NCBI GenBank assembly: GCA_965206705.1
Contig: CBDBKJ010000005.1
Span: forward strand, 642,979-706,978
Reading direction: 5' to 3'
DNA: 64,000 nucleotides
Origin: Vicinamibacterales bacterium
GTDB taxonomy: Bacteria; Acidobacteriota; Vicinamibacteria; Vicinamibacterales; UBA8438
Part shown: positions 2,366-13,800 of the stretch, one piece after another
How positions within the stretch are numbered: the first letter of the stretch is position 1
How the letters are laid out: every line of letters starts with the position of its first letter
Position numbers and translations under genes: made by a program
Notes under the pieces: model-generated
Seen by the model: only the letters and a program-made list of their open reading frames with translations
Database searches by the model: none
What the model was told of the DNA's origin: nothing

Positions 2366-2917
2366 TCATGGGCGGGCGGTCAGCGCGGCGAGGATGGCGT
2401 CTATCGCATCCCGCGCCTTTGCCCGCATCTCATCGTCGGTGGCGTCCTGAATCGGATGCGGCACGAACACCGAGCCGCTCGCGATCGCGGGCATGCCAAG
2501 GGCCTCCGCCTGCATCCGGGCGGCGCGGACGAACTCGCTCGACGCCACCATGACGGCGGGGATTCCGCGGGTCTCGTAGTCGACCATGTCGTGCACACTG
2601 CACGACGTGCAGGACCCTCAATCGGCGAGGGCCTGGATGACGGCCCGGCACCGCGCGCCCACCTCCTCCCGCAGGTCGTCCGGGGCCGGCTTGGTATAGG
2701 TCGGCTTGCGCAGGCGGATGACCTCGAGCGACGGCAGCCGCTCGCCGACGAGCCGCTCCACCTCGTCGCAGAAGACATCGCCCCGCGCCTTCGCGATGTC
2801 GATGATGCCCAGGGCGCCCTCGAGGCGGGCGGGCCGGGCCGCGGGCTGCCGCCCCATGGGGGCGCGTTCGTCGGTCGGGTCCAGAATGATCGGGGATTCG
2901 TCGCGCATGTGGTTCAT
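2366..2917 (-). CDS. UGSC-family selenoprotein; in-frame TGA (Sec) at 2618..2620; motif U-G-S-C-T-S-C
   Basis: ORFs 2618..2917 and 2366..2596 are in the same frame (2917-2596=321) and separated only by one TGA. Read-through gives ...AVIQALAD-U-GSCTSCSVHDMVDYETRGIPAVMV..., 183 aa. A UGSC family (seleno)protein is recalled from NCBI naming. The alternative start at 2908 has a better-spaced GAGGA. Confidence 0.7.
2591..2612 (-). promoter_or_regulatory. candidate bacterial SECIS hairpin(s) immediately 3' of the UGA
   Basis: mRNA sense is UGAGGGUC-CUGCAC-GUC-GUGCAG-UG-UGCAC. There are two overlapping perfect hairpins: CUGCAC/GUGCAG (loop GUC) and GUGCA/UGCAC (loop GUG). They start 8 nt after the UGA, with G-containing apical loops. 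Confidence 0.4.
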
Positions 2918-3016
2918 CCTCTGTGGCGGGGTGTTCCGGCTCGAGGGATGCTGCCGTCCACCACCGAGGGCCCATCTTAGCGCGGAAAGCCACGCACCGT
3001 TCTCCGGCGTCGGCGC

Positions 3017-4660
3017 CTATCCCGCGATCTCCCGCGTCACCGCCGTCGAGCCGGCGGCGCCGCTGGCCCAGCCGCCCAACACCGCCGAGAACTTGCCGGC
3101 GGTGCCCCCGGCCACGACGATCAGGATGTCGTCGTCGCGGCGGAACTTCGGCAGACGGGTATCGAGGGCCTCCGCCGTCGGCCGGCCGTCCGCGCCGAGG
3201 TACTCCGGCGGCAGGGCGCCGAGGGCCATGCCCTTCTGGCACTGCTCGTCCGGCAACAGCTCCCGCAGGGGCCTCGCCGTCACCTCCTGAATGCGGGTCC
3301 GGAGGTCCGCCTTGGTGTAGTTCTCCCGCGCGAATGTCCGTGCGTGCTCGGGACTGACCACCAGCAGCACCTCGCCCATGCGGTGCAGCTTGGGGTGCGC
3401 CATGGTCTCCAGGCACCACCCCATGCTGGCCCCCAGCGACCGCGCGGTCCGCGACAGTTGATCCCGGATCGCCCGCGGCGCCTCGCCGGCGAAGACGGTG
3501 ACGGTGCTCGTCTCCGCCGGAAACCCGCGCTCGACGTGCAACGGCTCCCACCCGCTGACTTCTTCGTGCTCGGCGATGCAGCAGGTGAACTTGCCCGGCT
3601 GCCCGAGGGTCGACATGTCGACCTCGCCGGGGCGCCCGCCGCCGACGTTGCGCACGAGAAGCTGCAGCGCCCGGCCGATGGTGGCGTTGGCCCGGAACCC
3701 CTGTCCGAAGACGTTGCCGCCGCAGTTGAGGCCGATGCGCTGGCGGATCGGCCCGTTGACGACGATGACGGGCGTCGCGAAGTAGGTCGTGGCCAGCACG
3801 CCGTGCAGATTGAACGTATCGGTGCACGCGGCCTCGGCGGCCGCGATGACCACCGGCAGATACTCCGGGCGGCAGCCGGCCATGACCGCGTTGATCGCGA
3901 CCTTCTCCACCGTGGCCGGGGCGAGGTTCGGGGGCACGTGGGCGACGACGTCGGACGCCGCCCGGGAGGTGCCTTCGAGCATCCGCAGCACCCGATCCTC
4001 GGTCGGGGGGACGACCGGGAGCCCGTCGCCGAGCCCCTGCGACGCCATGAACTCGAACGGATCGTCGTCGACGGGGATGCGCACCCGCCGGGCCCCCAGC
4101 GTGGCCGCGCCGCGCCGCACCGCGAGGCGGCGGGCCACGTCGGGGTCATGGATCTTCGAGCCGCACCCCGGACGATGCTCGGGCAGACCGTCCTCGTCCC
4201 GGACGATCTCGGGCGCGGCGACCCCGCACGCACCCGCCGCGTCCCGAATCAGGGCGATCAGGTCCTGCTTCACGAACCCCTCGAAGCTGCGCCGGACCCG
4301 GCGGGCCTCGCCGGCCAGGACCAGGGCCGGCACTGCATCGAACCCGTAGTCGGCCGACACCGTGAGGTCGGCGTCGAGGGCCACGTCGAAGCTCAGGCCG
4401 TGCCGGTCCACGAACCCGGCAGTGTCGGCGGCGGCGTCCTGGGAGACTCCCGCGAGCCGCAGGCCGTGCGGGCCGAGGGCCTGGTGAAGCCGCTCGATCA
4501 GCGGCGCCGTCAGGTCGCACGTCGCGCAATCGTGCTTGAAGAAGAAAATCAGGGTGGCCCCGGGGGCGTCGCCGTCGCCGTCGAACGCGAGGGTGGCGCC
4601 TTGCCCGTCGGCCAGCGAGAAGGCCGGCGCCTCGGCGCCGGGGGCGGGCAGGTCGGACAT
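3017..4660 (-). CDS. fusion protein: N-terminal thioredoxin-fold redoxin (AhpC/TSA-like, CATC) + ~390-aa uncharacterised C-terminal domain
   Basis: ATG at 4660 (MSDLPAPGAEAPAFSLADG...). ATLIFFFKHDCATCDLTAPLIERL is a redoxin CxxC region. The C-terminal part (GLGDGLPVVPPTEDRV...NLHGVLATTYFATPVIVVNGP...) matches no family I can name. Confidence 0.75.
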   Translation of the reverse strand: MSDLPAPGAEAPAFSLADGQGATLAFDGDGDAPGATLIFFFKHDCATCDLTAPLIERLHQALGPHGLRLAGVSQDAAADTAGFVDRHGLSFDVALDADLTVSADYGFDAVPALVLAGEARRVRRSFEGFVKQDLIALIRDAAGACGVAAPEIVRDEDGLPEHRPGCGSKIHDPDVARRLAVRRGAATLGARRVRIPVDDDPFEFMASQGLGDGLPVVPPTEDRVLRMLEGTSRAASDVVAHVPPNLAPATVEKVAINAVMAGCRPEYLPVVIAAAEAACTDTFNLHGVLATTYFATPVIVVNGPIRQRIGLNCGGNVFGQGFRANATIGRALQLLVRNVGGGRPGEVDMSTLGQPGKFTCCIAEHEEVSGWEPLHVERGFPAETSTVTVFAGEAPRAIRDQLSRTARSLGASMGWCLETMAHPKLHRMGEVLLVVSPEHARTFARENYTKADLRTRIQEVTARPLRELLPDEQCQKGMALGALPPEYLGADGRPTAEALDTRLPKFRRDDDILIVVAGGTAGKFSAVLGGWASGAAGSTAVTREIAG

Positions 4661-4815
4661 GGCGAGAAGTTTACCTTGATGCGGCGGTTCCCGGTTCCGC
4701 GCGTGCCGAGCGCACCGGTTCCGCCGCCGGCTGGGGTACCATGTTCGCCATGGGCAAACGAGTCGCATTCGTCTTGGGGCTCGCGATCGATCCTGCTCCG
4801 CAGGCGAAAGGAATC

Positions 4816-5211
4816 ATGAGCCGAAACGTCTTGCTGTCGTTGATGCTGGCCGCCGCGGCCGGTTCGCTGGGTGGGTGCGACTCGCTCGGTTCTCTCAATC
4901 CCTTTTCGCCCGACGATGAGGACTTGCATCCGGTATTCGCAGAACTGGTTCCGGACCAGACCTGGACGGTCGATACCGCCGTCCACCTCTCGCTGCCGGC
5001 CGCTGGCGAGGGGAACCCGCCGCTGACCTACGGGCTCTCGCCGGAGCTCCCCGCCGGACTCACGTTCGACGCCGCCGCGCGGACCGTCACCGGTACGCCG
5101 ACCGCCGTCCTGTCTATGACCACCTACATCTATACCGTCACCGACGACGACGACGATACCGCGTCGATGCAGTTCCAGGTCACCGTCGTCGCGGCATCCG
5201 GTTCCGGATAG
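4816..5211 (+). CDS. small lipoprotein with putative Ig-like (cadherin/dystroglycan-type) domain
   Basis: MSRNVLLSLMLAAAAGSLGGC has a lipobox (LGGC) after a GAAAGG RBS. LTYGLSPELPAGLTFDAAARTVTGTPT is the classic putative-Ig-domain repeat signature. Confidence 0.65.
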   Translation: MSRNVLLSLMLAAAAGSLGGCDSLGSLNPFSPDDEDLHPVFAELVPDQTWTVDTAVHLSLPAAGEGNPPLTYGLSPELPAGLTFDAAARTVTGTPTAVLSMTTYIYTVTDDDDDTASMQFQVTVVAASGSG

Positions 5212-5388
5212 ACCAGTTCATCGAACCGTTCCGCAACGTCCGGTGCGAACGTCCATGGCCGTTCGACCGTGGGCTTCAGTACCAGAGCGGCAACCGGGTT
5301 GAGATGGTTCGCGGGCGACGCGATATCACAATGGGAGACTTCATCGTCGTTCGTCCTCACAAGTCAACGGGGACGGAGCCCGTCCGGG

Positions 5389-7566
5389 TCATGACGACGC
5401 ATTTCTGTTGACCTTGCGAAAGGTGAGCGAAATGCGGCGCTTTCGTTTCGTGCGTTTCTCACCCGGCCCGCCGGGTTCGCTCTTTCTCTTCGGCAATTCA
5501 TGCGTCCATTCACGACGAGCCTCGCCGCTCATGACTGCCACACTACGTCGCTCGAGCGGTTGTTCGACCTTCTTCTTCGCTCGCCGTTTGCGGAAAACCA
5601 TCACCCAGGACTCCAGCAGGCTGATGGTCGCGATGCTGTCGGCGAAGCTGATGCTATCCACATGGGCGCTGATGCCCTGATCCTCAATGTACTCGTTGAC
5701 GATAACCTGATCGGGACGCTGTGGCACGAGTCCTTCCGAAACAAGGCGCCGCGCCAGTGCGTCCGCCCAGTCCGGAAGCGGGCCAAGCCGCATGGATGGG
5801 TCGACGTGACGGGCCTTGTAGTCGTACCGCCACCCGTAGTGCTGAACACGCCGAGACAGTTCGGTTTTCCATTCCTGCTGGCCGATGCACGTGACCAGCA
5901 TTTCCTCGTCGTCAGCACTCAGGAAATCCCGCACATACACCAAACCGGGCACGGTCAGCCGTTCGGGTTGCGTGCTGGGGACCGGCAGGAGAGGCGGATT
6001 CGGTAGCGGCCCGGCCTCCGTGGCGACGAGGCGCCGGAACCGGCCGACATCGAGCCCCTTCTCCACTTCCTGGTTCGGCGGCAAACGCAGCCGCACTTCC
6101 CCCTGAACCTCGATCCGCGCTTCCGGAGTGTCGAGTGTACGCACCGCGCCGGGGCCAACATAGGGAATCTGCACGTCCCTCAGGACAACCTCCCCAAAAA
6201 CGCACGGCCAGTTGCGTTTCGTCGCGAGTTTCAGGGCTTCCCTGCGAACCTGCGCGTTCCTGATATCGATCCCGAACCACCGGCCGCGTGCATGCTCGGG
6301 TTTGGCGAAGAAGTCCCTGCCGCCCCAGGACAGGATGATGTTGCCGCCGGCTCGCCGCCATTGCGGCATTTTGGCCAGGGCGGTCGGCCAGCGAATGCCT
6401 CGTGATCCGGCGGCAGTCAGGCGCAAGGCGTGAATGGAAAGCAGTTCACGTTGCAGCGCTTCTCCCCGAAACTGCACATCGAGCCCGCGATACCCATGAA
6501 GAAGACCGCACAGGGTCGCGGCGGACCACCCGATTCCCGGCGGGATCTGCGGCAGGTCCTTGAACCACGTCTTGAACCTCGCCGGCGCGGGACGGGCCAG
6601 CACCAGTTGAATCGCTATTCCGACGGGACAGTGCCGCCAGTTCTGGAGCTGAACGACCGACTCGGCGCGCAAGATCCTGGTCGTTGCGTCCAGCCACGCC
6701 GTCGTCTCGCGGCCGTCCTCTGGCCTGCCCTGCAGCGCCTCCTCATGAATACGGGTCGCCAGTTCCCGGGCATCGACACGAGCGCCGGCCGTCTGGCCAC
6801 GAAAGACCTCCACGGCGGCCAGCCAGAGACGATCGTGCCGGCTGGCCGGAACGGCGTCATCCAGCCGTCCCCCCCAGGGTGGCAGGCACCACCACGAGGC
6901 ATCCACCTTGGCCGCCATGGCGGCCAAGGCCGATCGTTGAGGGTCCAGGCTCGCCGCAAGCGTGTCCAGCCAGAGATCAATCCGCGGGACGCCCCACACG
7001 GCCATGCTCATGGCGCCGTGGATGGCATCCAGTTCGTCCGGAATGCCGATGCCCGTCGTCGCTATTGAAGGGTAGCTCTTCAGGTCGACGCGGTCCCCCG
7101 GGTCGGCCTCGACTTTGACCAGCTCTTCGGGCAGTGCGAGATTGGAGGCGCGTCTCGCCATGCCTGCAAGCCGAACACGCTCTTCTGCGGTCGATACCGA
7201 GATCTCCGAAATGGCGAACACCGGCAGGGCGCCGGGCCAATAGAGGGCGTGGTCGGTTGGTTGGACTCCGCCCAGGCGGCAAAGCCGCCAGCGTTCGTTC
7301 CGCAGAACGTGAATATCGAGGTCGGGCAGCTTTGCCGGATCGAGTCGTGCGTGAACAGGTATCGAATGCACTGCGTCGGACGGGTGTTCGTCACGCGCGT
7401 ACGCTCCGACTCCGATTGGCTGCCCCCACGACGACCGGGGTCGCAGCCAGCCGTCCTGAAGCGCATCGAACAGACGTCGATTGTCGGTGGCCAGTCCGAG
7501 CCACCGGGAGTCCGGTTCGCGGCTTTCAGAAAAGTCCATCGGCATCTGGGATTCGTGGATTGTCAT
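5389..7566 (-). CDS. 725-aa protein: ~535-aa N-terminal region of unknown function + C-terminal AlkB-type 2OG/Fe(II) dioxygenase domain (approx. 5392..5958)
   Basis: C-terminus: ...RVQHYGWRYDY...VIVNEYIEDQGISAHVDS (HxD)...REWTHEL (distal His)...RRISLTFRKV (RxSxTFR 2OG-binding). The start overlaps the upstream gene's stop (7563/7566). Confidence 0.8.
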   Translation of the reverse strand: MTIHESQMPMDFSESREPDSRWLGLATDNRRLFDALQDGWLRPRSSWGQPIGVGAYARDEHPSDAVHSIPVHARLDPAKLPDLDIHVLRNERWRLCRLGGVQPTDHALYWPGALPVFAISEISVSTAEERVRLAGMARRASNLALPEELVKVEADPGDRVDLKSYPSIATTGIGIPDELDAIHGAMSMAVWGVPRIDLWLDTLAASLDPQRSALAAMAAKVDASWWCLPPWGGRLDDAVPASRHDRLWLAAVEVFRGQTAGARVDARELATRIHEEALQGRPEDGRETTAWLDATTRILRAESVVQLQNWRHCPVGIAIQLVLARPAPARFKTWFKDLPQIPPGIGWSAATLCGLLHGYRGLDVQFRGEALQRELLSIHALRLTAAGSRGIRWPTALAKMPQWRRAGGNIILSWGGRDFFAKPEHARGRWFGIDIRNAQVRREALKLATKRNWPCVFGEVVLRDVQIPYVGPGAVRTLDTPEARIEVQGEVRLRLPPNQEVEKGLDVGRFRRLVATEAGPLPNPPLLPVPSTQPERLTVPGLVYVRDFLSADDEEMLVTCIGQQEWKTELSRRVQHYGWRYDYKARHVDPSMRLGPLPDWADALARRLVSEGLVPQRPDQVIVNEYIEDQGISAHVDSISFADSIATISLLESWVMVFRKRRAKKKVEQPLERRSVAVMSGEARREWTHELPKRKSEPGGPGEKRTKRKRRISLTFRKVNRNASS

Positions 7567-8678
7567 GACCGCTCCAGAATATCCGGACTCGGCAACGCGT
7601 CCACCGCTGCTTGCGTGAGGGAATCGGGTCCGTACACCAGAAACAGGCTGTCACGAGCGCGGGTGCACATCATGTACATCGCGCGTAGATCCGCTGCATT
7701 CTTGCACGGCAAGAAACGATCCAGTTCCAAGAGGAAAACCGTATCGAATTCCTGGCCCTTTATGGATGCCTTGTTCAGCAAGGTCACGCCCGGTGAGAGC
7801 AGGTCTATTCTCCCTTCGTTTTGCAGATCGCTTCTGTATATATCAACGCGCTTGCCCTCCAGTTTGCGGACGAGCAAGGCGTGCAAGGCATCGCCGGTGC
7901 CGTTTTGATCGACGACGATGCCAACGCTGCCGCCACGCACGACGCACCAGTTCGACACCAGCTTGGCTGTGGATTCAAGGCTCGCCGATCGGTAGAGTCG
8001 GGGACGCTCGCCAGAGGTTGGGCGGAGCACCGTGGCGGCGGGCAGACCGCCCCCATGGAAGTGCTCGGCCATCCTCGCCACTTCCGGCGCATTCCTATGG
8101 TTTTTCGTCAGAATAAGCGGGTCATTCAGGCCGCTTGCGGTCTTGATGTCTGCGAGCGACGTGCATTGATCTGCGATCGCTTGATCTTCGTCCGCAAAGA
8201 CGGACATTGTTCCTGATACACGCGAAGCGTATCTGAAAAAGCCATAAGGAAGGTCTTGCCCCTCATCCACGACAAGGTGAAACCGTTCAGGGCCATGGTC
8301 AGGCGTCAGGCGTGCGAGCATCACGTCCCAATCATGAACATACTCCTGAAGCTGCGGTGGTGAGACGCCAGTTCGCTGTTTGAAGTCATGCCAGATAAAG
8401 GTATGCATCGTACTAGCTTCCGGAACGATGCGCATTTCGCGATCCGTTGCGGACTCCTTCATCTGTTCCAGCAAGCGCCGCAGCATACGATTGTAGGTGA
8501 CGAGTTTGACGGCCAGCCCCGACCCCGCCTCCACCAGCATCCGGGCCCGGTGCAGGGCAAGGACGGTCTTGCCAGAACCCGGAGGCCCCACAACGAACAG
8601 CGACCGGTCAAGGGGGTATTCCAGTACGTTGAGCTGGTCCTGCGCATTGGCGATTTCGTTCCAGGTGGGAAGCTGCAT
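7563..8678 (-). CDS. SF1 UvrD-like helicase/ATPase (short, ~371 aa)
   Basis: Walker A VVGPPGSGKT, Walker B HLVVDEGQDLP, ADEDQAI, KNHRNAPEV, IKGQEFDTVFLLE and MCTRARDSL. Start chosen at MQLPTWNEI (8678); the upstream extension to 8834 runs through a repeat and looks non-coding. Confidence 0.8.
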   Translation of the reverse strand: MQLPTWNEIANAQDQLNVLEYPLDRSLFVVGPPGSGKTVLALHRARMLVEAGSGLAVKLVTYNRMLRRLLEQMKESATDREMRIVPEASTMHTFIWHDFKQRTGVSPPQLQEYVHDWDVMLARLTPDHGPERFHLVVDEGQDLPYGFFRYASRVSGTMSVFADEDQAIADQCTSLADIKTASGLNDPLILTKNHRNAPEVARMAEHFHGGGLPAATVLRPTSGERPRLYRSASLESTAKLVSNWCVVRGGSVGIVVDQNGTGDALHALLVRKLEGKRVDIYRSDLQNEGRIDLLSPGVTLLNKASIKGQEFDTVFLLELDRFLPCKNAADLRAMYMMCTRARDSLFLVYGPDSLTQAAVDALPSPDILERS

Positions 8679-8729
8679 GTCGGTTTTCTCAAAGTTGAAG
8701 GGTGTCTTGCGCAGCGCGGTGAAACAGTG

Positions 8730-8779
8730 CGTATCTAAGCGGGGCGGTCGTACATGGTTCCAGTGCTTCTCTCCGCCTC
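8730..8779. repeat. direct repeat copy 1 (50 nt)
   Basis: CGTATCTAAGCGGGGCGGTCGTACATGGTTCCAGTGCTTCTCTCCGCCTC. Identical to 8956..9004 except for one extra G in the G-run. Confidence 0.85.
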
Positions 8780-8866
8780 CGAAGGACCGGAGCGCAGCGG
8801 AGGACGCGCGATTGTTCCGCCCGCAGCAAGCCACCGCACGCCCGCCCCGGAAGCGGAATCCGCGGG

Positions 8867-9742
8867 TCAGTTCCGAGCTGCCTTTTCGCCGTCAGCCGCG
8901 CCTCGTGGACCCGCCGAATCGGCTCCGATTCCACCCACACCTGTTTTAGGAGAGCCGTATCTAAGCGGGCGGTCGTACATGGTTCCAGTGCTTCTCTCCG
9001 CCTCGATTGTTCCGTTGTCGTCCGCGATCATCCAGAATCCTGCAGCGTGCAGCGAGCTCCTGAAGCCGGGGAAAGCGAGGTTGGCGGCCGGCCTGACAGA
9101 ATTCGTATAGAGGACGGTAACAGGTCCTCGGCCAAGTTTGTTGAGCAGTTTTTCCAAGTCCTCAATGAGCGTGACCGCGTTCAGCGTCGGACTTGCGAGC
9201 AGGTAGGAAACAATGACGAACACTGGACGCCACTTCGGCGCCGGGCGCCAAGACACGGAGGAGATCGCGGACGACCAGTGGCGAGCGATCCGGAGCGCCC
9301 TATTGTGGTGTTCCGCCGCGCTTGCGAGTCGTTCGCCGAGCTCGCGCATCGCCTTGGATCGATCCACCCCGATGTAGTCGAATCTCGGGGCGGCGCCGAG
9401 AGCGCTGGCGAACGCAAGTCCGCCGGTAAACGGCCCGCAGCCCAAATCAACAACGATTGGTGCTTCCGGCAACGGTCCGGTAAACAGCATTTGAAACGCC
9501 TCGATGAGCTCCTGAAGGTGTCCAAATTGAAAAAAGTGAGTGTACATCAGGACGCGGTCGTCAGGCGACAAGTCCTGCCAACCCGTATCGAAATCGGCCT
9601 GTCCCCACCCGGCGATCTGGTGCGTTGCAGTGTTGCCATCGTAGCCAAGTATCGTGCCAGGCTGGGAACGAGGATCCATGTTTACGCGCTGCGTGATTTC
9701 AATGTCACGCAGCTTTTGCAGCCATTGGGGAAGTTGAGACAT
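8867..9742 (-). CDS. class I SAM-dependent methyltransferase-like protein (C-terminus altered by a 226-bp duplication/insertion)
   Basis: Motif I-like IVVDLGCGPFTGGLAF followed by YIGVDRS. There is no other recognisable family signature. The last ~45 codons run through repeat copy 2 and a G+C-rich insert. Confidence 0.55.
   Translation of the reverse strand: MSQLPQWLQKLRDIEITQRVNMDPRSQPGTILGYDGNTATHQIAGWGQADFDTGWQDLSPDDRVLMYTHFFQFGHLQELIEAFQMLFTGPLPEAPIVVDLGCGPFTGGLAFASALGAAPRFDYIGVDRSKAMRELGERLASAAEHHNRALRIARHWSSAISSVSWRPAPKWRPVFVIVSYLLASPTLNAVTLIEDLEKLLNKLGRGPVTVLYTNSVRPAANLAFPGFRSSLHAAGFWMIADDNGTIEAERSTGTMYDRPLRYGSPKTGVGGIGADSAGPRGAADGEKAARN
8956..9004. repeat. direct repeat copy 2 (49 nt)
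   Basis: CGTATCTAAGCGGGCGGTCGTACATGGTTCCAGTGCTTCTCTCCGCCTC. Lies inside the 3' end of the MTase-like ORF (encodes EAERSTGTMYDRPLRY). Confidence 0.85.
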
Positions 9743-9836
9743 CAGGGCGTTGTTTCCTCGGTCACCGGGAGATGCGTCAGGACAGCGTCAGCGTACTAGA
9801 TCGGGGCAGCTGCCGGAGTCACGGAGCACCTCCTGA

Positions 9837-9856
9837 AACCTCGGTCGACCGAGGTT
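9837..9856 (-). terminator. 20-bp perfect palindrome, likely terminator of the upstream core operon and boundary of the islet
   Basis: AACCTCGGTCGACCGAGGTT lies 17 nt downstream of the nucleoside hydrolase stop. In mRNA sense it is followed by UUUC. Confidence 0.5.
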
Positions 9857-9872
9857 CTCGCGGGCCGGTTGA

Positions 9873-10865
9873 TCACGGCAGGGGACTCGTCAGTAGGTCG
9901 GAGTACAGGTCGTAGAAGGCGCCGACGTCCAGATCGAGCATCACCTCGAGGGGGCGGGCGCGGGGGTCGTCCGGCGCCGTCACCGAGGTGGCGCCGCAGG
10001 CGGGGCCGAACGCCGTCTCGACCGCGATGGGCAGCGACTCGGACACCGTGACCACCGAGGGGTCGACGAGCCAGGCCGCGGTGATGCAGTCCCACACGTA
10101 GTAGGTGGCGGCGGGGTCGCGGGCGTAGCGCGGACCCATGTGGTGCTGCATGAGCCGGGTGAGCGGCGTGCCGGCGGCGACGATGCGGTCGAACAGGGCC
10201 TTGCGCACCGGGGCGTGGTTCGTGATGTCGAGGCCGAACATCACGAGGGAGGGCACGCCGGCCTGGAGGACCTCGGACGCCGCGTCCGGATCGAACCAGA
10301 TGTTGAACTCGGCCGCCGGTGTCACGTTCCCCGGCACCCGCGCGGCCCCGCCCATGAAGACGACGCGCTTGACGCGCGGCGCCAGATCGGGGCGCGCGCG
10401 GAACACCTGCGCGAGGTTGGTCATGGGGCCGACGGCCACGAGGGTGACCTCGTCGGGCCGGCGCTCGATGGTGTCGATGATGAACGACGCCGCGTCGGTG
10501 GGCCGGGGACGGACGGCCGCGAAACGTCCGCCGTGCGGCGGGCGCACCTCGGGTTCCGCGTCGAAGGCGCCCTTGAACGTGACTGGCCCCCACTGCGACT
10601 CCTGGCGCGCCGCCCGCTCCGGGGTGTTGACGAGGGGGGCGCGGGCGCCGAGATGGAGCGGGACGTCGGCCGCCCCCACGAGCTCCAGCAGATGCAGCAT
10701 GTGCTCGGCTCCCTGCGGGACCGTGTGGTTGCCGGCGACCACCGTGACGCCGAGCACGTCGACCCGGTCGGGCCGGCGAAGGAGCATGGCGAGGGCCGCG
10801 GCGTCGTCGTTGAAGACGGCCGAGTCGGTGTCGAAGATGATGGGCTCGGGCTCAGAAACGGACAT
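9873..10865 (-). CDS. nucleoside hydrolase (inosine/uridine-preferring family)
   Basis: N-terminal IIFDTDSAVFNDDAAALAMLL (DxDxxxDD Ca-binding motif) and 330 aa, typical for the IU_nuc_hydro family. Overlaps the TonB receptor stop by 14 nt. Confidence 0.8.
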   Translation of the reverse strand: MSVSEPEPIIFDTDSAVFNDDAAALAMLLRRPDRVDVLGVTVVAGNHTVPQGAEHMLHLLELVGAADVPLHLGARAPLVNTPERAARQESQWGPVTFKGAFDAEPEVRPPHGGRFAAVRPRPTDAASFIIDTIERRPDEVTLVAVGPMTNLAQVFRARPDLAPRVKRVVFMGGAARVPGNVTPAAEFNIWFDPDAASEVLQAGVPSLVMFGLDITNHAPVRKALFDRIVAAGTPLTRLMQHHMGPRYARDPAATYYVWDCITAAWLVDPSVVTVSESLPIAVETAFGPACGATSVTAPDDPRARPLEVMLDLDVGAFYDLYSDLLTSPLP

Positions 10866-13800
10866 TGATGCCTACCTGCGCGCGGCGGGTGTCGCCGAGC
10901 CCGCTGCGGATGGTTCCGTCGAAGTTGAAGAGCAGCGATCCCTGGGCGGTGTCGAGGATGTTGTCGGCGTTCAGGACGTTGAACATCTCGAACACCGGCT
11001 CGACGGTCGCGCCGTCCACCAGCCCGAAGCGCCGGGCGAGCCGGAGGTCCCACGTGACGAACTCGTTCTCCCGGCGCAGCGTGTTGCGCCGGAGAATCGA
11101 TCCGTCGGCGCAGATCCGGTCGGACGGCAGCGCGGCGCGGGCCCCCGGGTCGGCGCAGCGGGCTGAGACCGGCGACGCCGAGAGGTACTGGAACGCGTGG
11201 TCGAAGCGGACGTCGCCCGGCAGGGTGATCAGGACGTAGCCGTTCGCCCCGTGGCGCCGGTCGCGGTCGGACCAGCCGTACTCGGGCGCGAGGTCGGCCG
11301 CGCTCGCGTAACGGAACGTGAACGGGTCGCGTTCGTTGTCGTCGTCGGAACGGTCGAACGCGAGCGTGTAGTTCGTCTCGAAGGTGAGCCGGCCGCCGAA
11401 CGCGTTCCGCCCCCGCAGGCCGACCGTCAGGCCGTGATAGCGCGAGCGGGCGCTGCTCTCCGTGACGGTCAGAGAGCCCAGTCCGCCGCCCCAGGGGTGC
11501 GTCCCGATGCCGAAGGGCGCGCCGAGGACGGGGTCGTTGCGGTTGACGAAGCGGAAGAGGTTGTCGGTCCGGGCGTGAACGAATGTGGCGTTCGCCACGA
11601 GTCCGCGCCCGAGGTCCCGATCGACGGCGGCGCTGAACGACCAGGTGCGCGGCAGCTCCAGGTTGCGGTCGGCCACCTGGACGTCCGGCAGGAACGGCTG
11701 GGCCGCCGAGCCGTCGATCTGCCGGTCGAGAGGCGGCACCGGCCCGAGCGCGGGCGAGGCGGCGCTGCTGCGGAAGATGATCTGCTGGAAGGCGCCGTTG
11801 GTCGTGCGGTGTCCCGCGAAGACCAGCATCGGGATGCGCGCGACGTACGACCCGGCGTTGGCCCGCACCACCGTCCGGCCGTTGCCCCCGGCGTCCCACG
11901 CCAGCCCCAGGCGGGGCTGGAAGTTGTCGAGGTCGTCGGGAATCCGGCCGTCGGATGAGAAGCGGGGATCGTCGAGATAGGGCGCGAAGAAGGTGTCCTC
12001 GGGCTCGACGAAGACGTCGGGGTGCCACGAGCCTTCCCAGCGGAGGCCGAGGTCGAGGGTCAGCCGGTCATGCGGGGTCCACGTGTCCTGCAGAAAGAGT
12101 CCCAGCTCGTGGGTGCGGAGCTGCTGCCGCCCGAGCTGATCGGGGGGCACCCCGGGCACCGTCGCCGCCTGCAGGTAGAGCAGCACCGGTCCGGTGATCT
12201 GCGCGCCGGCCGGACAGAGGCCCACGTCGCTGCTCGACCCGTCCGAGCAGGTGACATAGCGGTGGCCCCGGGTCACGAAGTCGATGAAGCCGCCGACCGA
12301 GTCGAAGAGGTAGCGGCTGTTCGCGAACCCGATGAACTGCTGAGCGGCGTTGGTCCGGTTGTATTCCACGCCGGCCTTGACGAGGTGCCGGCCCAGCAGG
12401 ACCGAGGCGTTGTCGAGCACCTGCAGGCGGGTGTCGTACGACGGGTCGATCGGCAGAAAGAAGGGGAGCCCGATGCGGAACCCGTCCGCGAAATCCATGC
12501 CGACGTCGGGAAACGGCCGTCCCCCGAGCCGGTCGAACTGCGGGGGGCCGGGCGCCGCCGCCCCCGGCATCAGCGGTCCGTCGTACCAGCGGGGCCGGTG
12601 CTCGCGCGCCCACTGCAGGCGGAACTCGTTCGAAAGCGTGTTGCCGAGCAGCGAGCGGAGGCCGGTGTTGAACGCGTGCGAACTGTCCCGCTCGATCCCG
12701 TTGGCCGAGCGCCCCCACGCGTCGACGTCGAAGGTGCCGTTCACCTGCTCCGCCCAGGTGTGGTTGTACTTGCCGGAGAGCTGGTGGCGGGCGTCGAAGG
12801 TGACGTCCAGCTTGGCGAGGAACGATCGGGCGTCGTCGGTGCGCCGGATCGGTCCGAACTCGTCGTCGAACAGGCCCGGCCATCGGGATTGGAGGAAGGT
12901 CTCCAGCGTTCCGAGCGCCTCGGGGTTCGCGACGCGCCGGTCGGTCTGCCGGGTCTCGGCCGCCGCCTGCTGGTCGTAGGCCAGGAAGTAGAACGCCCGG
13001 TCGGGCACCAGGGGCCCGCCGAGGGTCGCGCCGAACTGATTGCGCCCGAAATCGGGCTCGCCGCCGCCGCGCTCGGGCGAGTACGCGGCGGAGATCTCGT
13101 CCCACTGCCCGTAGTAGTGGGCGGACCCGGTCGGATCGTTCGTGCCCGACTTGGTGATCACGTTGACGAAGCCGCCGGCCGAGCGGCCGAACTCTGCCGT
13201 CGCGCCCTGGTTCACCACCACGATCTCCTCGATCGCGTCCTGGTTGAAGGTGAACGCGGGCCGCTGGCCGCCCCGTTGCTCGCCGAAGAACGGATTGTTG
13301 AAGTCGGCGCCGTCCACGATGATGTTGTTGAAGATGCCGCGCTGGCCGGCGATGTTGAGCACGTCGCCGTCCGGGCCCTGCGAGACCGACGCCCCCGGGG
13401 TGAGCAGCGCCAGGTCGAGGTAGTTGCGGCCGTTGCTGGGAAGCCGGTCGACCACCTCCTCGGCCACCCGTTGGGAACTCGTGACGTCGGCCGTCGACAC
13501 CAGCCGCGCGCCGTCCGCCGCCACCGTGACCGTCTCGGCCGCCACCACCCGCAGATCGATCGCGAGGTCGATCGTCTCGCCGACCCGCAGCGTCGCGCCT
13601 TCGATGCGCTCGACGCCGTACCCGCCGTCGGCCGTCACCGTGAGGTCGTAGGTGCCCGGCGGCAGAAGCGCCCGCACGAACGTGCCGGCCGGCGTCGTCT
13701 CGACGATGGTCTGCAGGTCGGTCTCGAGGTGCAGGATGACGAGGACGGCGCCCGGCATCGGCTGGCCGAGCGGATCGCGGACCATGCCCCGGACGACGCC

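Follow-up and report, generated by a model that had tools for sequence, protein, structure and literature searches.

In eukaryotic ALKBH8, a methyltransferase (MT) domain and an AlkB domain act in sequence on the mcm5U of tRNA, the AlkB domain hydroxylating a carbon side chain after methylation without erasing any N-methyl group. Human alkylation repair by ALKBH3-ASCC3 relies on a helicase to provide an AlkB-type dioxygenase with single strands as substrate. The classical AlkB substrates are ring-nitrogen marks such as m1A and m3C, which block base pairing and arise only on single strands. In the defence system DarTG, one enzyme writes a base modification on single-stranded DNA and another erases it (PMC11543638). 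Here we analyse a cassette of three genes from a member of the Vicinamibacterales (Acidobacteriota; contig CBDBKJ010000005.1) that encode a putative S-adenosylmethionine (SAM)-dependent MT, a superfamily 1 (SF1) helicase and a 725-aa protein in which an AlkB-type dioxygenase follows a long N-terminal region (the AlkB fusion). The whole 64,000-nt stretch that was analysed is called the window, and cassette coordinates are given on its numbering. The trio is almost certainly a real functional unit. Its composition lies outside the described systems, and its logic, by analogy, resembles that of DarTG, ALKBH8 and ALKBH3-ASCC3. We consider it probable that the trio serves biological conflict and propose, more tentatively, a writer/eraser system that would most likely defend against phages or other mobile DNA.

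The cassette shares parts with each of these systems. As in ALKBH8, where they serve one nucleoside, a SAM MT is combined with an AlkB-type dioxygenase, and among solved structures the ALKBH8 AlkB domain comes closest to the cassette dioxygenase (E = 7.3e-24). However, ALKBH8 is a single eukaryotic housekeeping polypeptide (RRM-AlkB-MT) with a Trm9-type MT and with neither a helicase nor a DarT-like module, whereas the cassette genes are separate, mobile and patchily distributed, and encode no RRM and, by Pfam, no Trm9-type MT. Helicase and dioxygenase are teamed in ALKBH3-ASCC3 as they appear to be in the cassette, where their genes overlap or are fused; ASCC3, however, is an SF2 Ski2-like helicase, ALKBH3 is of the demethylase type, no MT takes part and the homology is at superfamily level only. 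With DarTG the cassette would share a writer/eraser logic. DarT is also the only fold match of the first N-terminal domain of the AlkB fusion, and NADAR is fused to the same module in a distant relative. In contrast to DarTG, the cassette has no Pfam DarT, macrodomain or NADAR, the catalytic residues of ADP-ribosyltransferases are not conserved, and the modification would be methylation, not ADP-ribosylation.

Conservation of the trio as a unit

The AlkB fusion has hundreds of full-length relatives with 48-72% identity. A pattern scan of one genome per species returned at least 600 matches, at least 543 of them confirmed by tblastn, and the best 80 loci were retrieved. In most of these 80 loci, tblastn with the window proteins found MT, helicase and AlkB fusion in identical order and orientation. 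All three genes are full-length in 52 of the 80, and most of the others are contig ends or decayed copies, decay being frequent. Carriers come from at least 8 phyla and belong to the Acidobacteriota (Vicinamibacterales, Bryobacterales and Terriglobia), Myxococcota (Enhygromyxa), Chloroflexota, Planctomycetota, Ca. Entotheonella, Gammaproteobacteria (Pseudomonadales, Lysobacter, Stenotrophomonas and Pseudomonas), Betaproteobacteria (Paraburkholderia, Variovorax, Rugamonas and Duganella) and Alphaproteobacteria. The three genes diverge together, as their identities to the window copy are correlated (r 0.87-0.94). In the window, the helicase stop and the AlkB-fusion start overlap in an ATGA (Table 1), as the first-pass annotation of this DNA had reported; in many other loci the matches to helicase and AlkB fusion abut, and the two genes form one open reading frame (ORF) in two lineages (1,114 aa at 8825..12169 of locus L014, and 1,108 aa in P0012). 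All-against-all clustering of flank ORFs detected no fourth conserved gene. The first-pass annotation had proposed co-conservation in other genomes as the test of its operon, and the trio passes that test: its order is kept across phyla, divergence is correlated, and the helicase and AlkB fusion are coupled or fused.

The cassette is chromosomal, self-contained, laterally transferred and often lost. Of 66 loci, 62 have a cassette lower in G+C than the flanking DNA (median difference -5 points), and one Azotimanducaceae genome (OZ253469.1) carries two divergent complete trios, whose AlkB fusions are 47% and 42% identical to that of the window. Carriage on plasmids or phages was rejected, as no full-length AlkB-fusion homologue was found in 72,556 plasmids or 50,697 phage records and only one in 2.9 million viral contigs.

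That no described system has this composition had been stated from the sequence alone, and the searches agree. In PADLOC-DB v2.0.0 the AlkB fusion has no match, and the helicase and MT give weak, partial matches to models from different systems. These candidates (GajB, C3a187, mad8, mad2 and C3a159) were therefore rejected as known systems. Pfam and NCBIfam assign the trio to no described system, and full-text literature searches returned no description of an AlkB-containing anti-phage system or of an MT-helicase-AlkB system.

The MT-AlkB pair outside the trio

Searches of plasmids with tblastn returned only stand-alone AlkBs of ~200 aa, 41-47% identical to the window domain. Such AlkBs lie beside an MT on plasmids pAQ6 and pAQ5 of Picosynechococcus PCC 7002, on the chromosome of Synechocystis PCC 7339, in Calothrix HK-06 and in a further genome with the order AlkB - MT - AlkB (Table 1). 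In this set of loci, identity is 39-47% between the AlkBs and the window domain and 24-28% between the MTs and the window MT. The pAQ6 MT, 26% identical to that of the window (E = 2e-15), has GQADF/GKADF, motif I, YIGxD and SYLxAS in common with it and is a full-length member of the PADLOC family C3a159. The cyanobacterial MTs scanned score 450.6 (pAQ6), 224.1, 85.5 and 69.3 bits against C3a159 over most or all of the model. The window MT matches the same model (PDLC01079) at 3e-10, with 38.2 bits over 90 residues, and was therefore rejected as a family member, being homologous but outside the family. Judged by these identities, MT and this AlkB type are an old, conserved gene pair. The first-pass annotation had allowed that the MT-like protein might prove to be a small-molecule enzyme with homologues in unrelated contexts; the MT family adjoins the same AlkB type even at 24-28% identity, which argues against this.

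The NTPase partner of the pair varies, being an SF1 helicase, a KTI12-like kinase fused to WYL, or none. The kinase match to KTI12-like proteins is above the Pfam cut-off. Thus the cyanobacterial loci resemble the window in that a homologous MT always stands beside the same AlkB type, and differ from it in their stand-alone AlkB, in having a KTI12-like kinase-WYL protein instead of the SF1 helicase, and in the retron-type reverse transcriptase (RT) or CRISPR RAMP-family gene nearby. The match of the RTs to PADLOC retron RT models (E ~1e-138) is confined to the RT part. Plasmid pAQ6 lacks the RT part but has, nearby, a gene whose annotation reads 'RAMP superfamily CRISPR-associated protein'. 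We note that the cyanobacterial cassette RT - hypothetical - kinase-WYL-WCX - MT - AlkB looks like an undescribed retron-type system with an MT-AlkB accessory pair. Homology between the N-terminal region of the AlkB fusion and the genes that follow AlkB in cyanobacteria (C3a124 and its neighbour) was also considered and rejected (hhalign probability 0.1%).

An ALKBH8-like dioxygenase

The first-pass annotation had read the C-terminal domain of the AlkB fusion as an AlkB-type 2-oxoglutarate/Fe(II) dioxygenase, and the superfamily assignment stands. The domain matches PF13532 (2OG-FeII_Oxy_2) with 78.7 bits against a cut-off of 31.2, and H635, D637, H689, R708, R710 and R717 are invariant in 30 sequences, so that the predicted enzyme has the HxD...H triad and the RxxxxxR 2-oxoglutarate-binding motif of AlkB proteins. 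The best profile match among solved structures, covering residues 5-163 of a 191-residue query, is to human ALKBH8 (AlkB domain), followed by an S. pombe homologue, 6mA demethylases and ALKBH6, 7 and 5; with an E value of 7.3e-24 for ALKBH8, no demethylase comes close to it (next-best match, 1e-11). Escherichia coli AlkB of the Ada regulon has PF13532 and the Fe/2-oxoglutarate-binding residues in common with the cassette domain, which differs from it by a 540-aa N-terminal extension. E. coli AlkB is absent from the PDB sequence matches at E<=1, and identity as an E. coli-type AlkB was rejected because the NCBIfam equivalogs failed (NF011930, 20.4 bits against 267; TIGR00568, 18.3 against 231). 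With ALKBH8 as the closest relative and the E. coli equivalogs failed, activity as an eraser of m1A/m3C is only assumed, and a sequence of methylation and then hydroxylation is equally possible.

Stand-alone genes for ALKBH8-like AlkBs of ~180 aa also occur on phage and giant-virus contigs of IMG/VR (L093-L126; 35-50% identity), and two MT queries detected no MT homologue adjoining AlkB on these contigs. On the 5.8-kb plasmid pTB4 of Roseobacter denitrificans, an AlkB of this type (47% identity; L088, 983-1570) is one of eight annotated genes and adjoins a 153-aa hypothetical gene and a BrnT/BrnA toxin-antitoxin pair.

A methyltransferase unlike restriction-type DNA methylases

The MT has a class I SAM-dependent fold, is Rsm22/METTL17-like and measures 291 aa in the window, against 274-279 aa in its relatives. 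Family alignments show a helical N-terminal extension with an invariant GQADF motif, and motif I (VVDLGCGPFTGG) is invariant along with other columns. Pfam matches of single MTs are weak, and those of the family are limited to the generic Methyltransf_25/23/31/12 and Rsm22 (Methyltransf_25 in 22 of 34 members and Rsm22 in 12 of 34). The best solved relatives in profile searches are Tmt1 (4e-5) and METTL17 (1.3e-4). An AlphaFold2 model (pLDDT 83.8) matched only generic class I MTs in Foldseek, such as NTMT1, Bud23, NNMT and METTL17, with no DNA MT among the top 50 matches.

Methylases of the BREX and DISARM systems had been offered as parallels in the first-pass annotation, a comparison that fails: the MT has no Pfam match to N6/N4 or C5 DNA-MT families, no DPPY-type motif and no target-recognition domain. 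Identity as a restriction-modification, BREX or DISARM methylase was thus rejected for want of a family match, a target-recognition domain or conserved partner genes, and by these features the MT is not a restriction-type DNA methylase. Where N6/N4 and C5 signatures are lacking, ring-nitrogen, O- or carboxyl-methylation remain, which are marks that AlkB-type enzymes act on; for the cassette MT, with neither an amino-MT nor a C5-MT signature, this would leave ring-nitrogen or O-methylation.

The 3' end of the MT gene is rearranged in the window. Homologues align to MT residues 3-262 only, ending in ...LRYALF.R, and the last 29 residues are specific to the window. The junction of MT and helicase has a unique 176-nt insert (8780-8955) of host-like G+C (0.69), enclosed by the two copies (8730-8779 and 8956-9004) of a 52-nt direct repeat (38 + 14 nt, one 1-nt indel). 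The insert displaces the conserved tail (...LRYALFHR..L.L), puts 29 unrelated residues in its place and lengthens the spacer between the MT and helicase genes from about 50 to 188 nt. The native tail (...PLRYALFHRAAQDTLQL, then stop) is still readable in another frame, just upstream of the helicase ATG. No further copy of the insert was found in the window or related loci, and a repeat or mobile-element origin was rejected on this ground. Illegitimate recombination, an assembly artefact or decay of the window copy are possible origins.

A compact UvrD/HelD-like helicase

The helicase ORF as called mechanically begins at a GTG (Table 1). The true start is almost certainly the ATG at 8678, judging from the alignment of its MQLPTW with the MRLPTW of 31 homologues. 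The SF1 motifs GPPGSGKT, DEGQD, FADEDQ, NHRN, GQEFD and MYMxxxRAR are invariant in 32 sequences, and the protein matches Pfam AAA_19 with 36.6 bits against a cut-off of 25.1. Among solved structures the helicase profile matches HelD (4.9e-25), UvrD (6e-11) and GajB (2.7e-6). With Walker A and B and motifs Ia-VI, the protein would be an SF1A ATPase of the UvrD/Rep/HelD-like type. It has the SF1A core in common with Gabija GajB, UvrD and HelD, and weak PADLOC matches to GajB, but at only 371 aa it is without the accessory 1B/2B domains or HelD arms. Gabija itself was rejected, as the best GajB score (35 bits, partial) is far below family level and no GajA-like gene is present in the window or related loci. 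The motifs quoted in the first-pass annotation for all three proteins are present in the translations and fall in invariant columns of the family alignments. The cassette thus appears to encode three enzymes with intact active sites for SAM, ATP and Fe/2-oxoglutarate.

The N-terminal region of the AlkB fusion

The N-terminal 535 aa had been called novel, which is right as far as sequence matches go: no Pfam match was obtained in 53 members at E<=10, and profile searches found no PDB relative for the whole N-terminal region or for residues 392-530. The region is not featureless, however. An AlphaFold2 model (pLDDT 72.9, pTM 0.72) divides it into three parts, namely an alpha/beta domain with a DarT-like fold, a Trp-rich all-helical domain that is the most conserved N-terminal part, and a small alpha/beta domain directly before the dioxygenase. 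Searched with Foldseek against the PDB, the model has DarT as its top seven matches (E 0.015-0.18; probability 0.82-1.00), with target TM scores of 0.16-0.48, six of the seven being 0.38-0.48. The BFVD viral fold library gave nothing significant. Catalytic sets of DarT enzymes are H-Y-E in DarT2 and R, D and E in DarT1 (PMC11543638). Across 93 family representatives, the DarT-like domain has no conserved H-Y-E or R-S-E triad; its better-conserved positions are N142 (85%), R30 (82%), H29 (72%; Asn in the window) and E128 (70%). An active DarT (Pfam DUF4433/DarT) was rejected, there being no Pfam match in 53 members and no invariant H, Y or E. We read the first domain as DarT-derived or DarT-like but probably not a transferase. 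In the helical domain G184, P194, W199, W225, W231, W248, Q320, R325, W334, G354 and G358 are invariant or near-invariant; its identity as an ADP-ribosylglycohydrolase was rejected, as Foldseek E values are 1.5-4 and the metal-binding acidic residues are not conserved. Conserved residues of the small alpha/beta domain include R427, W430, A444 and F510.

An exhaustive profile search of 1.84 billion representatives with the N-terminal region returned only 278 clusters, all within the family or bearing a part of the region as a module. Most are AlkB fusions of ~720-770 aa. The exceptions carry profile positions ~15-389, that is, the DarT-like and helical domains, in other architectures (Table 1). 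Two of them, P0346 and P0358, are by their domain content and context giant polyvalent proteins of plasmid or integrative and conjugative element (ICE)-like or conjugative elements. NADAR, to which the module is fused in P0346, reverses guanine ADP-ribosylation by DarT1 (PMC11543638). These architectures lend circumstantial support to an ADP-ribose/DarT ancestry and good support to a conflict-related module. The P0387 locus, which has a Dam-type methylase as well, may represent a further small operon of the conflict type.

ADP-ribosylglycohydrolase genes adjoin the system in three loci of one Vicinamibacterales lineage (L012 6140-7822, L005 8284-9939 and L080 8612-9931), the L005 gene directly preceding an AlkB fusion that has no MT or helicase. 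A different ADP-ribosylglycohydrolase type lies beside the system in a Marinacidobacterales genome (L022 12299-13777). This adjacency could be chance or a link to ADP-ribose chemistry.

Boundaries and composition of the locus in the window

All three genes lie in one direction on the minus strand, in a stretch whose G+C content is 0.617 against 0.690 in the remaining window, with local dips to 0.57 and flanks at 0.70-0.75. The low-G+C, co-directional organization described in the first-pass annotation is thus confirmed, and both bounds it gave are found at their positions. On the left the bound is the end, at 5211, of an immunoglobulin (Ig)-domain lipoprotein gene. On the right it is a perfect 20-bp palindrome, AACCTCGGTCGACCGAGGTT, just past the stop of a nucleoside-hydrolase gene (IU_nuc_hydro). 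The palindrome is terminator-like, has no T-run behind it and was missed by the intrinsic-terminator scan. Flanking genes in the window are housekeeping (a symporter, a redoxin-domain protein, the nucleoside hydrolase and a TonB-dependent receptor). No known RNA family was found in 4500..10500, no tRNA gene in the window and no sigma-70-like promoter.

Table 1 Features of the cassette in the window, and related loci in other genomes on their own numbering.
Feature or locus	Position	Strand	Description
MT ORF	8867..9742	-	291 aa
Helicase, mechanical GTG ORF	7563..8834	-	423 aa
Putative UvrD/HelD-like SF1 ATPase/helicase	7563..8678	-	371 aa from ATG 8678, not 423; alignment of 32 homologues
AlkB fusion	5389..7566	-	725 aa
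Helicase stop/AlkB-fusion start, ATGA overlap	7563..7566	-	predicted translational coupling
Alpha/beta domain, DarT-like (ADP-ribosyltransferase) fold	7117..7503	-	residues ~22-150; AlphaFold2 and Foldseek
Trp-rich all-helical domain	6397..7032	-	residues ~179-390; most conserved N-terminal part
Small alpha/beta domain directly before dioxygenase	6007..6369	-	residues ~400-520; AlphaFold2 secondary structure
Putative ALKBH8-like Fe(II)/2-oxoglutarate dioxygenase	5410..5946	-	residues ~541-719; H635, D637, H689, NEY, RISLTFR
Window-specific rearrangement, MT/helicase junction	8730..9004	strandless	52-nt direct repeat around 176-nt insert
Perfect 20-bp palindrome	9837..9856	strandless	just past nucleoside-hydrolase stop; insert boundary, outside cassette
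Picosynechococcus PCC 7002 pAQ6 (L089)	2882-6549		AAA_33/KTI12-like kinase + WYL + WCX - MT - AlkB
Picosynechococcus PCC 7002 pAQ5 (L090)	2867-8549		RT - hypothetical - kinase-WYL - MT - AlkB; abortive-infection (Abi) and restriction endonuclease genes nearby
Synechocystis PCC 7339 chromosome (L131)	2784-8526		five genes as in pAQ5; transposase and PIN-domain gene nearby
Calothrix HK-06			MT - AlkB; nothing notable nearby
Further genome (L133)	6238-8653		AlkB - MT - AlkB; AlkBs of 216 aa and 241 aa; nothing notable nearby
P0346, 1213 aa (L087)	6487-10128		DUF4326 + NADAR + module; beside YAcAr protein and Toprim primase
P0358, 1963 aa (L127)	6557-12448		module + SLOG/YAcAr; element with TraG-type coupling protein and integrases
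P0364			module alone; conjugative-element context
P0387, 400 aa (L129)	5982-9203		module alone; overlaps end of two tandem Pol-beta nucleotidyltransferase genes; beside AbiEii

A candidate conflict system and competing explanations

The first-pass annotation had suggested that a methyl writer, a methyl eraser and a motor form one nucleic-acid modification or defence system. The functional unit is upheld, the defence role is indirect in that it comes from the contexts of relatives, and the writer/eraser chemistry did not hold up as more than an assumption, given the ALKBH8-like alternative. Indirect support for a conflict or defence role comes from MT-AlkB relatives beside retron-type RTs, Abi, restriction and CRISPR RAMP-family genes. 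What follows on the substrate, on the direction in which the chemistry runs, on a role in defence and on the task of the N-terminal module is our inference. The MT and the dioxygenase would share one target base, located in a single-stranded nucleic acid that could be RNA/tRNA or unwound DNA. The UvrD/HelD-like motor would be made in fixed proportion with the dioxygenase protein, probably bound to it, and would strip or unwind the substrate and feed it to both enzymes. The MT would write a methyl mark that blocks base pairing or decoding, and the dioxygenase would remove or convert this mark on the cell's own molecules, steered by the N-terminal module, in which a DarT-derived fold, probably without catalytic activity, would bind nucleic acid and is followed by the Trp-rich helical domain and the small alpha/beta domain. 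If the marks are of the ring-nitrogen type that AlkB enzymes accept, the logic would be that of a DarTG-like toxin and antidote. The dioxygenase depends on O2, Fe(II) and 2-oxoglutarate, and an infection that upsets the cell would therefore tip the balance between writing and erasing. In its most specific form, the cassette would be an oxidative writer-eraser immune module in which MT marks that block base pairing, placed on tRNA or on unwound or replicating DNA, are continuously opposed by a dioxygenase steered by a DarT-derived sensor, an infection that disturbs motor, sensor or metabolites lets methylation win and replication or translation stops, and the MT-AlkB pair would also be the effector of the cyanobacterial retron-type cassettes; this fuller version is speculative and, taken whole, rather unlikely.

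Several observations weigh against the writer/eraser conflict reading. The trio does not appear to be a regular resident of defence islands: the 106 immediate neighbours in about 60 loci fall into 92 different Pfam families, mostly metabolic or housekeeping, and only a handful match PADLOC models. The few neighbours of another kind are transposases, toxin-antitoxin genes, a type III MT, RmrA, a phospholipase effector, PDC candidates and an AbiEii-type AAA_21 protein. In three loci (L005, L057 and L060) an intact AlkB fusion stands alone, MT and helicase being absent, and the fusion thus has some use, or at least no cost, by itself. The closeness of the dioxygenase to ALKBH8 favours a sequential pathway over erasure, and the DarT likeness comes solely from Foldseek matches, with no support from sequence profiles. 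Finally, the window MT has lost the conserved C-terminal tail, and hence this copy may be impaired.

The best-surviving alternative is a sequential hypermodification as in ALKBH8, in which the MT makes a methylated nucleoside, for example at a tRNA wobble base or a DNA base, hydroxylation by the dioxygenase then yields a stable hypermodified base, and the helicase serves to remodel the substrate. The hypermodified base would either keep nucleases off the RNA or DNA of the cell itself or inactivate nucleic acid of foreign origin. The dioxygenase is far closer to ALKBH8 than to any demethylase, the MT is overall closest to the RNA-linked Rsm22/METTL17 architecture, and the AlkB - MT - AlkB genome is compatible with oxidation in several steps. 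The kinase that partners the cyanobacterial pairs is KTI12-like, and KTI12 belongs to the eukaryotic tRNA U34 pathway, as ALKBH8 does. The MT, however, is not specifically Trm9-like, and the patchy, low-G+C and often decaying distribution is unlike that of a housekeeping tRNA pathway. We regard such a pathway as possible, if on the unlikely side.

A damage-reversal module would put the same coupling to another use, the helicase exposing single strands on which AlkB repairs alkyl or bulkier N-linked lesions, caused by environmental alkylators or competitors' toxins, with the MT in a regulatory or protective role. Helicase-AlkB coupling and fusion, the loci with an AlkB fusion alone, the mostly ordinary neighbours, the NCBI name AlkB of one family member and the ADP-ribosylglycohydrolase genes that abut the system in two lineages all suit this explanation. 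It offers no obvious place for a SAM MT, yet the MT co-evolves with this AlkB type over very long distances; the dioxygenase also fails the E. coli AlkB equivalogs, and the cassettes that contain relatives of the pair are retron- and CRISPR-adjacent. On balance damage reversal is improbable.

An ADP-ribosylation system, with an active DarT-like DNA or RNA transferase whose adduct the AlkB domain oxidatively reverses or processes in the place of DarG or NADAR, would explain why DarT leads the Foldseek list, why P0346 has the module fused to NADAR and DUF4326 and P0358 has it alongside SLOG/YAcAr, and why ADP-ribosylglycohydrolase genes stand beside the system in the Vicinamibacterales and Marinacidobacterales loci. 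The transferase triads are nevertheless not conserved and R30, H29 and E128 only partly so, no member has a Pfam DarT match, all Foldseek E values exceed 0.01, and polyvalent proteins string unrelated domains together, which makes fusion weak evidence; we consider this very improbable. That an AlkB repair enzyme, a helicase and an MT merely travel together as ordinary accessory genes with no joint mechanism would fit their unremarkable neighbourhoods, but it is hardly credible in view of the order, orientation, coupling, fusion and correlated divergence kept across phyla and the MT-AlkB adjacency kept at 24-28% MT identity.

Implications

Some results are independent of function, namely the MT-AlkB pair retained down to 24-28% MT identity, the swapped NTPase partner and the DarT-like module held in common with polyvalent proteins. 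The pair, the retron link and the module make this more than a chance gene neighbourhood. Together the results define a set of protein families of several hundred clusters that are now annotated only as 'AlkB' or 'hypothetical', and its cultured carriers among Pseudomonas, Lysobacter, Variovorax, Paraburkholderia and Enhygromyxa make the cassette a directly testable candidate system. Flexivirus replicases likewise combine MT, AlkB and helicase domains. If the cassette does act in defence or as a toxin and antidote, it would be the first such system with an AlkB-type oxidase as a core component. It would bring oxidative (de)methylation into prokaryotic immunity, tying immunity to cellular oxygen, iron and 2-oxoglutarate, and would provide a prokaryotic origin and a rationale for pairings known only from eukaryotes and plant viruses, from ALKBH8 and ALKBH3-ASCC3 to the flexivirus replicases.

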